Source: an uncultured Bdellovibrionales bacterium (GTDB lineage: Bacteria > Patescibacteriota > Minisyncoccia > Moranbacterales > UBA1568). From it: 41,035 bases of DNA. Below are positions 26,299 through 29,175 of the stretch, in pieces (position 1 is the first letter of the stretch; every line of letters starts with the position of its first letter). The notes under the pieces are model-generated. The model saw nothing but the letters and a program-made list of their open reading frames with translations. It did not search any database and was not told the origin of the DNA. The stretch is from assembly GCA_964561695.1 (NCBI GenBank), contig CAZLQC010000003.1, positions 1 through 41,035 of the forward strand, given 5' to 3'. The position numbers and the translations under genes were made by a program.

Positions 26299-29175
26299 GA
26301 AAACCTCTATCAACCAGAAATTATTGAACCAAAATGGCAGGCTTTGTGGGCTGAGCGTAACCTTCATGTTGTTTTAGATACTGTAGAGGGAAAAGAAAAC
26401 TTCTATCAGTTGGTAGAATTTGCCTATCCATCAGGTAACTTACACGTTGGTCACTGGTACGCTTTTGCGGTGCCCGATATTCATGCTCGCTTTGAGCGGA
26501 TGCGTGGTAAGAATGTACTCTATCCTATTGGTTTTGATGCCTTTGGCTTACCAGCTGAGAATGCTGCTATTAAGCGCGGACTCGATCCACGAGTGTGGAC
26601 CTATCAGAATATGGAACACATGAAGATGCAGCTGCAGTCCATGGGAGCCATATTTGATTGGACACGTAGCATAGCTACTTGTGATCCAGAGTACTACCGG
26701 TGGACTCAATGGCTATTTATCCAACTGTTCAAGGCTGGCCTAGTAGAAGAACGAGAAACACTGGCCAATTGGTGTCCACAGGATAAGACAGTTTTGGCCA
26801 ATGAGCAGGTCGTTAATAACACCTGTGAGCGTTGTGGTACTCAGATTGAAAAAAAGACCATGAAGCAGTGGCAACTCCGCATCACCGCCTATGCCGATAG
26901 ACTGATAGATGATCTCGAAGGATTAGACTGGCCCGAGGAGATTAAGACGGCTCAGAAGAATTGGATAGGGAGAAGTGAAGGAGCAGAAATAGATTTTCTT
27001 ATAAAGGACACTCAAGAAACTCTAACCGTTTTCACCACCCGGCCCGATACTCTCTACGGTGTGACCTATATGGTCTTAGCACCAGAGCACCCTTGGGTCA
27101 CACTTGCCTTGCAATATGATCACGAAGTTCTTTCTAATAAGGCAGAAGTGAAAGAGTATGTAGAGGCTGCTAAGAAAAAAACTGAAATAGAACGTACGAA
27201 TACTACCAAAGAAAAAACTGGAGTTCTTCTGGATGGCGTAGTGGTTATTAATCCAGCCACAGGAGAAGAAATTCCTCTCTATGTAGCAGACTACGTACTT
27301 GCTGGTTACGGTACGGGGGCCATTATGGCGGTACCAGGGCACGATGAACGAGACTTTGCATTTGCTAAGAAATTTGGTTTACCTATCAAGAAAGTGCTTG
27401 AGGAATGTCTAGTTACTGAAGGTAGTCGAGATGATGCTTATCGGTCAGAAGAAAAAGTAGAACCAAGAAACGCGGTGGCGACGTGTGTTTATGATCCAAA
27501 GACAGATACTTTTCTAACTATATCGTGGAAAGCTTTTGAGATGCGAGGAGTAGTGACTGGAGGGATAGAGGAAGGAGAAGATATCGAAACTACAGCGAGG
27601 AGAGAAATTCTTGAAGAAGCTGGTTACAAGAATTTGAAACTGGTTTCCATCCCGGAGGTTAATAAGCACACGAAATTTTTTCACCGAGGGAAGAAGGTGA
27701 ATCGTCATGCAACGTGGAGCTTTGCTTTGTTTGAACTGATAGACGATGAGCGACAAGAGATGACTGAAGAAGATAGCGCTCAACATGAGGTGGTTTGGGT
27801 TAAGAGGGAGGCTATTAAAAATTATTTCACCGTAGCAGAGGCGCGTTGGGCAGTGGACTTGTTTGAGCACCAAGAAGAGGGTCCTTTGGTCAGTGGTGAG
27901 GGTCTTCTGGTCCAATCAGGAGAGTTCAATGGATTAGCAAGTGGTGAAGCTCAGGGAAAGATAGTAGAGAGTGTTGGGGGAAGACTCACCAAAACCTATC
28001 GTCTGCGTGACTGGGGAGTCAGTCGTCAGCGCTATTGGGGGTGCCCGATCCCACTCATCGAGTGTGTGGGTTGTGGCTGGCAACCAGTACCAGACGAAAA
28101 CCTGCCAGTAGAACTGCCAGAAGTGGCTGATTATTTGCCAAATGATAATGGCGAAAGTCCGCTTTCTAAGAATGCTCATTTTGTAAACACTGTGTGTCCT
28201 CAATGTGATGAGCCAGCTCGTCGGGAGACTGATACACTGGATACTTTTGTTGATAGCAGTTGGTACTTTCTCCGGTATTGTGATCCAACTAACACAACAG
28301 TATTTGCTGACAAGACAAAGCTGGCTTCTTGGATGCCGATAGACCTCTATAGTGGCGGGGCAGAACATACAACGATGCACCTTCTGTACTCCCGTTTTTT
28401 TCATAAAGCCTTGTATGACCTTGGATTGGTGACAGAAACAGAGCCATATAAGAAGCGCATGAATCGGAGTCTTATCCTAGGCCCTGATGGCAATAAGATG
28501 AGTAAATCTAAGGGCAATGTGATTGATCCGGATGAGTTGGTTACAGAATTGGGTGCCGATACCATTCGCCTATACTTAGCCTTTATCGGACCCTACAATG
28601 AGGTAGGGGCCTATCCATGGAATCCAGAAAGTATTGTGGGGGTGAGGCGGTTTCTGGATCGAGTATGGAAGTTGACCTCTAAAGTCACAGAGAATTTGCC
28701 GAAGGAAAAAATAGTGGAGGCAGATCGTGTCTTACATCAGACACTTTCCAAAGTAGAAGAGAGTATCGGTATCCTCAAGATGAATACCGGAGTAGCAGCG
28801 CTTATGGGGGCAGTCAATATCCTTGAGAGAAACGGTCTAACTCAAGAGCAGTTCAGGCTTTTCCTACAAATCTTAGCACCCTACGCACCACATATAGCCG
28901 AAGAACTTTGGGAGCAGACTGGTGGCACCAGTTCTATCTTTGAGATTCCCTGGCCTACCTTTGATGCTAGTAAAGTAGCAGTAGCCGAAGTAACTCTCAT
29001 GGTACAAATCAACGGTAAAATCCGAGATCAATTCCAAACTCGTCCCGATTTGGACAACAAAGAAGTAGAAAGCCTGGCTCTCGCAAGAGAAAAAGTGCAG
29101 GAAATAATTGGCAGTCAAACAGTGAGTAAGATAATTGTGGTGCCGAATAAATTAGTAAGTATTGTCATCTCATAG
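26296..29175 (+). CDS. leuS: leucine--tRNA ligase with an inserted Nudix hydrolase-like domain (about residues 370-535)
   Basis: HVGH, CP1 editing [53 protein letters not shown]. Nudix box [23 protein letters not shown] at 27559-27627. Confidence 0.97.
   Translation: [959 protein letters not shown]

Follow-up and report, generated by a model that had tools for sequence, protein, structure and literature searches.

The leucyl-tRNA synthetase (LeuRS) gene leuS of an uncultured bacterium, deposited as Bdellovibrionales and assigned by GTDB to the Patescibacteriota (Minisyncoccia; Moranbacterales; UBA1568), encodes a complete Nudix domain nested within a surface loop of the CP1 editing domain. 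The gene lies in a stretch of 41,035 nucleotides (assembly GCA_964561695.1, contig CAZLQC010000003.1, positions 1 to 41,035), which was analysed in full and is hereafter referred to as the window. Its product is an intact housekeeping bacterial LeuRS of a Patescibacteria/Candidate Phyla Radiation (CPR)-type bacterium, and we have practically no doubt that the Nudix insertion is real and conserved. As judged from sequence comparisons, the Nudix clade to which the insert belongs is found in nearly all cases within aminoacyl-tRNA synthetase genes or next to them, and the explanation that we place ahead of the others, although we would give it somewhat less than an even chance, is that the Nudix domain is tethered in LeuRS to cleave the dinucleoside polyphosphates (ApnN) which synthetases make as by-products. 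The window LeuRS is but one ordinary member of a large family, and it is the family-level pattern that would surprise synthetase specialists. The relevant features of the gene are the following.

26296..29175, + strand: leuS, leucyl-tRNA synthetase with the nested Nudix domain (959 aa; coordinates given through the stop codon)
26443..26454, + strand: HIGH signature of the class I catalytic site (HVGH, residues 50–53), invariant in a 63-sequence alignment of the family
26956..27405, + strand: first part of the CP1 editing domain (residues 221–370), matching PF13603 (E=5e-61) over profile positions 1–142 of 185 only
27034..27051, + strand: Thr-rich editing motif TTRPDT (residues 247–252), with T247, T248, R249, D251 and T252 invariant in the 63-sequence alignment
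27310..27354, + strand: editing-site motif with the conserved Asp (residues 339–353), with G339, G341, H349, D350, R352 and D353 invariant in the 63 sequences
27328-27402, + strand: conserved LeuRS flank to the left of the insert (residues 345–369)
27406..27897, + strand: inserted Nudix module (residues 371–534), comprising an N-terminal linker strand, an alpha/beta/alpha core and a C-terminal helix
27463..27822, + strand: Pfam NUDIX match (residues 390–509; PF00293, E=1.2e-12)
27559..27627, + strand: Nudix box (residues 422–444), found as a regular-expression match
27898..28005, + strand: second part of the CP1 editing domain (residues 535–570), leading back to the catalytic core and aligning with Thermus thermophilus LeuRS from residue 380
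27901-27936, + strand: conserved LeuRS flank to the right of the insert (residues 536–547)
28495..28509, + strand: KMSKS loop (residues 734–738), invariant in the 63-sequence alignment

When aligned with the T. thermophilus enzyme, the window LeuRS falls into three blocks, with residues 4–370 corresponding to T. thermophilus residues 3–364, residues 535–731 to 380–581 and residues 735–958 to 638–876. The Nudix module, ~164 residues in length, takes the place of the 15-residue CP1 loop between T. thermophilus residues 364 and 380, which amounts to a net insertion of ~150 residues; the host loop is located one helix and one strand downstream of the conserved HDxRD motif. The original prediction, made from the sequence letters without database searches, had put the insert next to the editing domain, but it proved to lie inside that domain, because the PF13603 match is split at profile position 142 of 185 and the alignment with T. 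thermophilus LeuRS breaks between residues 364 and 380. The ordinary loop was also expected to have 25–30 residues, which overstates its length (~10–17 residues; 15 in T. thermophilus). By contrast, the ~165 codons between the conserved flanks were located as claimed (residues 345–369 and 536–547), and the perfect Nudix box, G-x5-E-x7-R-E-U-x-E-E-x-G-U, was recovered at exactly the predicted residues (422–444; nucleotides 27559–27627). It is the single match to this pattern in the window LeuRS, and none was obtained in 200 shuffles of the residues of the six-frame open reading frames (ORFs) of the window.

The box is embedded in a full-size Nudix fold, as had been anticipated from its surroundings, and PF00293, the AlphaFold model and Foldseek agree on this point. 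The hmmscan comparison suggested at the time yields the PF00293 match at residues 390–509 (E=1.2e-12), with scores of 48.4 bits for the whole protein and 52.4 bits (E=7e-14) for the insert alone, the gathering score being 21.1. AlphaFold2, run with an alignment of the full-length protein, produced a model with a pLDDT of 89.4 and a pTM of 0.78, in which pLDDT ranges from 87 to 96 across the insert, whereas the insert modelled alone reached a pLDDT of 94.6 and a pTM of 0.88 and displayed the expected strand-helix-strand pattern, indicating that it folds independently. A Foldseek search against the Protein Data Bank (PDB) returned 519 matches at E<=1e-3; the 50 that were listed are all Nudix proteins, many of them matched with a probability of 1.0. 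The best among those listed is the MutT/nudix protein 2AZW of Enterococcus faecalis (TM-scores 0.71/0.80), and further matches include NudI, Ap4A hydrolases (3I7U, 4IJX, CT771 and Rv2985), RppH, also in an RNA-bound structure, NudB and ADP-ribose pyrophosphatases, with TM-scores of 0.5–0.65 and 14–24% sequence identity. A profile search of PDB sequences similarly retrieved 2AZW and 3SMD (4e-10), the lupin Ap4A hydrolase 1F3Y (1e-8), AvrM14, NudI and the DIPPs. The module is thus a member of the Nudix hydrolase superfamily that belongs to no characterized subfamily. Assignment of a substrate by homology did not succeed, since the similarity picked up by NCBIfam, by the PDB sequence profile and by Foldseek was in each case merely that of Nudix proteins in general.

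The host enzyme is equally well defined. The whole 959-aa protein scores 957.8 bits with the NCBIfam model TIGR00396 (leuS_bact) vs a curated equivalog cut-off of 548.4, and phmmer matches it to the T. thermophilus LeuRS 1H3N with E=6.5e-223. Its Pfam domains are the class I catalytic core, the PF13603 editing domain, the PF00293 NUDIX domain and the anticodon-binding domain. The HIGH, KMSKS, TTRPDT and HDxRD motifs are all present and invariant in the family alignment, and in the second part of CP1, beyond the insert, G536, S541 and G562 are near-invariant in alignments of homologues. Because all functional LeuRS signatures are present and invariant, both aminoacylation and post-transfer editing are presumably retained. 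The leucine-specific domain (approximately residues 582–637 in T. thermophilus) is absent from the window LeuRS, where the alignment passes from T. thermophilus residue 581 to residue 638 over three to four residues before the KMSKS loop (residues ~731–738; window positions 28486-28510); Nudix-less relatives of 800–818 aa lack this domain as well.

For comparison with relatives, we used the 120 best LeuRS clusters from a collection of 5.8 billion proteins (48–82% identity; sources NCBI, JGI, ENA and Logan). A segment of 167–181 residues occupies the insert site in 116 of the 120 clusters, so that the survey of orthologues that had been recommended came out clearly in favour of a shared feature; three clusters (P0015, P0019 and P0092) have a short span of 21–27 residues, including 10 flanking ones, and one has 90 residues. 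The names attached to the LeuRS matches are Kaiserbacteria, Adlerbacteria, Campbellbacteria, Paceibacterota, Minisyncoccota and Parcubacteria, which would assign the window to the Patescibacteria and probably to the Paceibacteria; cultured relatives are available among the Minisyncoccota. Beyond the 116 clusters, the claim of an in-frame domain insertion, as opposed to a fusion or assembly artefact, is upheld by a 100%-identical fragment in an independent ENA assembly (P0003) and by synteny: two independent metagenome-assembled genomes (MAGs; contigs L013 and L014), the LeuRS of which are 76% identical, share the gene order atpD-atpC-response regulator-leuS(Nudix)-NTP_transferase-HAD-glmS, and a third syntenic relative (L021, carrying P0015) has a leuS from which the insert is cleanly absent. 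The GC content of the insert (0.42–0.45) equals that of the remaining leuS. No Pfam match to a Hint or intein domain was found in the window LeuRS, and the junctions (E370/C371 and E535/G536) do not carry the Cys/Ser and His-Asn residues of inteins. A scan of GTDB genomes with the single insert sequence yielded two close relatives, a few generic Nudix matches and one LeuRS from Gracilibacteria (genetic code 25), in which the Nudix domain is likewise located at the site used in the window. A word-indexed search with the insert alone found P0001 only, which reflects a limit of sensitivity rather than rarity, considering that full-length and profile searches recovered hundreds of sequences. On the 124-kb source contig of P0001 (L001), the LeuRS homologue, which combines Nudix and HAD_2 domains, is distributed over six short genes (4906-8838), with tblastn matches in two frames; the broken frames are likely to be assembly frameshift errors.

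The pattern of conservation in the 116 homologues points to strong purifying selection on the metal-binding and catalytic residues of the module. Within the box, G422 and E437 as well as E441 are retained in all 116 sequences, G423 and G443 in 115, E440 in 112, Y444 in 106, R436 in 105 and E428 in 102; outside it, R391, K466, N469, H497 and W501 are also strongly conserved. At the same time, the mean identity to the window sequence is 33% for the insert vs 62% for the LeuRS body, and away from the catalytic Glu, Arg and Gly residues the rest of the insert drops to 20–45% identity. Comparison of the insert with that of L014 gave a dN of 0.24 and a saturated dS (~2.2), hence a rough dN/dS of ~0.1. 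In four clusters (P0008–P0011), the LeuRS body is 69–70% identical to that of the window and the insert only 20–22%, with the Nudix box kept in a different, LPGGGIE-type context, indicating that the Nudix domain was apparently replaced in situ or has diverged very fast, while some Nudix was kept at the site. Since the residues of the box are near-invariant amid low overall identity of the insert, the data argue for an active enzyme rather than a relic or a mere spacer, and the module is probably a catalytically active hydrolase, judging by its conserved catalytic residues. Its net charge is −11 in the window and −6 on average in the family.

The most informative result, the wider distribution of the family, came from an exhaustive hidden Markov model (HMM) search, in which a profile built from 35 inserts was compared with 1.84 billion representatives clustered at 50% identity, yielding 179 representatives at E<=1e-30 and 887 at E<=1e-10. 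We classified 286 modules in 272 proteins, namely 150 listed representatives, the nearest LeuRS clusters and a few prolyl-tRNA synthetases (ProRS). LeuRS or LeuRS fragments contain 241 of these 286 modules. The site seen in the window (after residue ~368) is by far the most common, with 211 modules; eight are inserted after residue ~210, before the LDWPE linker, five after residue ~240, directly before TTRPDT, and four after residue ~635, in the Zn-binding insertion of the core, whereas two are further copies elsewhere in multi-copy LeuRS and ten belong to N-terminally truncated LeuRS fragments. Some LeuRS contain two to three copies of the module (e.g., P0122–P0124), and P0128 consists of tandem copies only. 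The other 45 modules reside in proteins without BLAST similarity to LeuRS, several of which are fragments of the LeuRS editing domain. When the nearest neighbours of the modules were analysed, the various insertion sites and the free-standing genes proved to be interleaved (43–66% identity), which indicates the repeated relocation of a single Nudix clade. Furthermore, the clade (E=2.5e-38) is represented in five ProRS clusters of the archaeal type (P0232 and P0273–P0276; 641–674 aa), where it lies between the anticodon-binding and ProRS-C_1 domains; the nearest Nudix-less relatives of these proteins are named Nanoarchaeota or Woesearchaeota, which suggests that the module has been transferred between CPR bacteria and DPANN archaea. 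At the level of the clade, there is thus an association with the genes of both synthetase classes, in Bacteria as well as in Archaea.

Free-standing members of the clade (~25–30 genes encoding proteins of 154–207 aa with a Met start) are in several cases found next to synthetase genes too. One of them (P0164) lies 2 nt upstream of an insert-less leuS on three contigs (two MAGs and one SRA assembly), another (P0145) directly upstream of an insert-bearing leuS, and a third (P0223) between argS and an ileS that has a histidine-phosphatase domain of its own; P0213 is located near a Sua5/YrdC gene. Complementarity between Nudix-less leuS genes and adjoining free-standing copies is only partial, because it holds for the insert-less leuS of contigs L004–L006, which is adjoined by a copy of the clade, whereas the Nudix gene located 54 nt downstream of the insert-less leuS of P0015 encodes a 131-aa protein from another family (L021, 6457-6852, and L022, 3999-4394; 20 bits with the clade HMM; FPGGHLEFGE-type box), and no free-standing copy was found within 4 kb of the Nudix-less leuS of P0092 and P0113. 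Taken together, we lean, with modest confidence, towards a module that is functionally coupled to synthetases rather than a passenger.

According to the favoured explanation, the module would be an independent Mg2+-dependent hydrolase tethered to the synthetase. Synthetases form Ap4A, Ap3A or Ap4N when ATP or a different nucleotide, in place of tRNA, reacts with the bound aminoacyl-adenylate, and the module would cleave these adenylylated polyphosphates to AMP and NTP, in the manner of Nudix asymmetric Ap4A hydrolases. The synthetase would then supply the substrate and, being constitutively expressed, also act as a scaffold for the Nudix domain. That ApnN compounds of the Ap4A type are the substrate is a tentative assignment, which we consider possible but somewhat doubtful. 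We nevertheless favour it because synthetases are a source of Ap3-5N, the nearest characterized matches of the module (1F3Y, AvrM14, NudI and the DIPPs) act on polyphosphate-linked nucleotide substrates, an aromatic pair follows the box and the NMNAT-Nudix proteins offer a precedent. The pair occupies positions +17 and +18 after the box, with position 461 being F in 95 and Y in 15 of the 116 homologues and position 462 being Y in 63 and F in 45 (F461 and F462 in the window); a tyrosine ~17 residues after the box, stacking on adenine, presumably marks ApnA hydrolases, which we treat as a lead only. Synthetases are the main cellular source of Ap3-5N, and Nudix proteins are one known class of enzymes that degrade them asymmetrically (PMC7705103). 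In NadM/NMNAT-Nudix proteins, a nucleotidyltransferase of the HIGH superfamily, bearing the HIGH motif and making an adenylylated product, shares one polypeptide with a Nudix domain that degrades a related dinucleotide (PMC7824862), but these are end-to-end fusions with a Nudix of the ADP-ribose/NAD type, engaged in the unrelated NAD metabolism. Adenylate chemistry and tRNA are the two things common to LeuRS, ProRS and isoleucyl-tRNA synthetase (IleRS), and among the functions originally suggested for the insert, it is degradation of Ap(n)A that gains most from the association of the clade with several different synthetases.

Several observations weigh against ApnN clearance. LeuRS is not known from the older biochemical literature as one of the strongest producers of Ap4A, and arginyl-tRNA synthetase is not known to make any. 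Because no curated Nudix subfamily model was reached by the module and the best PDB matches, 2AZW and 3SMD, are uncharacterized, the substrate is a guess: the NCBIfam models of RppH, NudI, NudE, ADPRase and NudB gave 13–25 bits vs cut-offs of 80–250, the RppH models NF001936, NF001938 and NF001934 in particular 15–21 bits vs cut-offs of 116–241. Two free-standing members have other neighbours, one (P0178) lying 4 nt downstream of fpg/mutM and the other (P0155) adjoining another Nudix gene with no synthetase nearby. Finally, unrelated domains in LeuRS loops of relatives (see below) may mean that LeuRS is simply a permissive carrier. The main rival is, accordingly, house-cleaning of the MutT type, with the module being a passenger, a MutT/NudI-like pyrophosphatase of (oxidized) nucleoside triphosphates without mechanistic link to leucylation, captured in tiny genomes by an essential, constitutively expressed gene with insertion-tolerant surface loops. 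We regard this as fairly unlikely, yet to be taken seriously, considering that NudI is the best NCBIfam Nudix match (25 bits, below its cut-off) and among the best Foldseek matches, that P0178 appears to share an operon with fpg/mutM, which acts together with MutT in the defence against 8-oxoguanine, that P0223 is clustered with thymidylate kinase, dUTPase and another Nudix, that unrelated hydrolase domains in nearby loops of LeuRS relatives bespeak a permissive scaffold and that the syntenic Nudix-less leuS of P0015 is accompanied by a Nudix gene of a different family. A mere passenger would not, however, be expected to land repeatedly in synthetases, at four sites of LeuRS, in tandem copies, in archaeal ProRS, in genes abutting leuS and between argS and ileS, and no MutT model was among the NCBIfam matches of the window LeuRS.

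The remaining alternatives appear less probable. The module could be an enzyme of RNA or tRNA ends, either stripping the 5' end of a triphosphate, an Np4 cap or an NAD cap, or freeing the 3' CCA from pyrophosphate or another adduct such as those placed by toxSAS toxins; CP1 would then be a delivery platform, and the HAD and histidine-phosphatase inserts of relatives would take off the remaining phosphate. The location of the insert within CP1, to which the tRNA 3' end binds, the presence of RNA-bound RppH and the decapping effector AvrM14 among the matches, the joint occurrence of Nudix and HAD domains in CP1 (P0021 and L001) and of His_Phos_1 in IleRS, and the fact that tRNA is the other thing common to LeuRS and ProRS all fit such a role. 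It is nonetheless unlikely, because the module is acidic and hence poorly suited for RNA binding, its very different positions, including free-standing genes and the C-terminal region of ProRS, speak against precise placement at the CCA end, and no RppH or NudC model was reached in NCBIfam. Only a little less plausible is a broader reading, in which the module belongs to an unrecognized set of accessory repair or proofreading modules in or beside the synthetases of CPR and DPANN ultra-small symbionts; the set would also comprise the domains of the alpha/beta-hydrolase, HAD, His-phosphatase and ASCH-like types that occupy these loops in related LeuRS and IleRS. Such modules would not be general metabolic enzymes and may act in cis on the tRNA acceptor end (toxin-installed pyrophosphate, phosphate or acyl adducts) or on synthetase-specific nucleotide adducts. 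A non-catalytic module, binding a nucleotide ligand (Ap4A, ppGpp or ADP-ribose) to modulate LeuRS or serving as a structural spacer, is improbable: inactive Ap4A-binding Nudix proteins such as CFIm25 do exist (PMC7705103), and structural compensation for the missing leucine-specific domain is conceivable, but in 116 sequences the box hardly varies at its metal-binding and catalytic positions, whereas their surroundings are free to change, and the leucine-specific domain is equally missing from the Nudix-less relatives. Still less credence can be given to hydrolysis of non-cognate aminoacyl-adenylates (pre-transfer editing) or of adenylate-mimicking antibiotics, despite the association of the module with adenylate-making enzymes and its position in the editing domain. 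Known Nudix substrates are nucleoside diphosphate-X compounds, and acyl-adenylates are cleaved by HIT enzymes, not by Nudix enzymes; an aminoacyl-AMP is an acyl-phosphate anhydride with no pyrophosphate bond, making this the chemically least plausible of the earlier ideas, and with an intact post-transfer editing site there is no obvious need for it. As for an assembly chimera, an intein or a mobile element that has inserted itself but does nothing for the cell, the occurrence of the module at several sites and in tandem copies bears a superficial resemblance to mobile elements, but we give this reading next to no chance, because the module is carried by hundreds of independent assemblies and shared by syntenic relatives, has the GC content of its host gene, consists entirely of a Nudix fold, leaving no room for a Hint or an endonuclease domain, and is under purifying selection at its catalytic residues. 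The intein, artefact and pseudo-enzyme readings were therefore rejected on account of the lacking Hint domain and junction residues, the many independent assemblies and the conserved catalytic residues, respectively.

The architecture can be set against several known systems. Canonical bacterial LeuRS (T. thermophilus, 1H3N/2BYT; E. coli, 4AQ7/3ZGZ) have the same Rossmann core, HIGH and KMSKS motifs, ZN-1, CP1 with TTRPDT and HDxRD, anticodon-binding domain, C-terminal domain and domain order, but differ from the window enzyme in that the latter has the ~150-residue net insertion between T. thermophilus residues 364 and 380 and no leucine-specific domain; of the 17 LeuRS sequences matched in the PDB, not one extends over residues 371–534. 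The Nudix Ap4A/ApnN hydrolases (NUDT2, RppH/YgdP/IalA, Aq_158 (3I7U), CT771 and Rv2985) share with the module the compact fold of ~150 residues and the canonical box, with TM-scores of 0.56–0.65 (query-normalized) and a match of 1e-8 to the lupin enzyme, and the aromatic pair 17–18 residues after the box may be a further parallel; they are, however, only 16–22% identical to the module and free-standing, whereas the window module is nested in a synthetase. The best sequence matches (4e-10), 2AZW of E. faecalis and 3SMD of Bacillus thuringiensis, are structural-genomics entries with 18% identity and offer no clue to function. A precedent for a bacterial class Ia synthetase with an extra catalytic domain is the IleRS with a GNAT domain (NCBIfam NF040702), but there the extra domain is an acetyltransferase and the synthetase a different one, the 72 bits scored by the window protein vs a cut-off of 1999 reflecting the shared class I core only.

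A full-text search of 8 million papers and preprints, which did not extend to subscription-only literature, brought up no description of a LeuRS or other synthetase that contains a Nudix domain. The LeuRS-Nudix architecture, which is visible in databases through precomputed Pfam matches and some NCBI entries named 'NUDIX domain-containing protein', appears to be uncharacterized. The original prediction of an unusual architecture thus stands as regards the published record, but not as a peculiarity of the window, given that the architecture is widespread in Patescibacteria sequence data. Insertions in the CP1 domain of class I synthetases are usually regarded as small idiosyncratic loops, but the one described here amounts to a complete second enzyme, retained throughout a large bacterial radiation. 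The recurrent recruitment of one Nudix clade to synthetases is a classic signature of functional partnership and suggests that nucleotide clean-up is tied directly to tRNA synthetases in these cells. If ApnN clearance is indeed the function, this would be the first synthetase carrying a destroyer of its own alarmone by-product and would provide an experimental handle on the long-debated in vivo output of dinucleoside polyphosphates by synthetases; if the substrate is another one, such as oxidized nucleotides or tRNA ends, the module would be informative all the same about the way in which symbionts with reduced genomes package their maintenance functions.

The Nudix module is not the only domain nested in these enzymes. 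About half of the 120 nearest LeuRS clusters (P0008, P0014, P0018, P0020 and others) contain a second nested domain of ~180 aa before TTRPDT, at a point corresponding to window residues 238–244 (nucleotides ~27007–27027), where the window LeuRS has no insert. This domain is usually an alpha/beta serine hydrolase (PF06821/PF12697/PF00561), in most cases with a G-x-S-x-G elbow, and the same loop holds a HAD phosphatase in P0021 and PDDEXK_3 in P0051. A 132-aa insert of P0067, located after the position of window residue 594 (nucleotide ~28077), contains the motif SGEKTVETR, by which it may resemble the RNA-binding ASCH domain. At the P0223 locus (contig L010), downstream of argS and the free-standing Nudix clade member, an IleRS-like class I synthetase gene (5094-8498; PF00133 and DUF5915) has a nested histidine-phosphatase domain (PF00300), and this locus also includes genes for thymidylate kinase, a Zeta-toxin-like kinase, another Nudix protein and dUTPase.

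In the window itself, an NTP_transferase gene (29179-29871) begins 4 nt past the leuS stop codon and is followed, after a further 4 nt, by a HAD hydrolase gene (29875-30510). The three genes probably constitute one operon, and their order is kept in L013 and L014. An origin of the P0021 HAD insert from this HAD gene was considered and dismissed for lack of similarity between the two (E=0.09). Two antisense ORFs (133 and 156 aa; 27514-27915 and 27934-28404, − strand) lie wholly inside leuS; as conservation is seen in the + strand frame, they are most likely non-coding. Further downstream, a 431-aa ORF without a Pfam match at E<=0.001 (35063-36358, + strand) is located between folD and a tRNA-Leu gene with the anticodon CAA (36435-36518, − strand), 7 kb downstream of leuS; no other RNA gene was found in the window.

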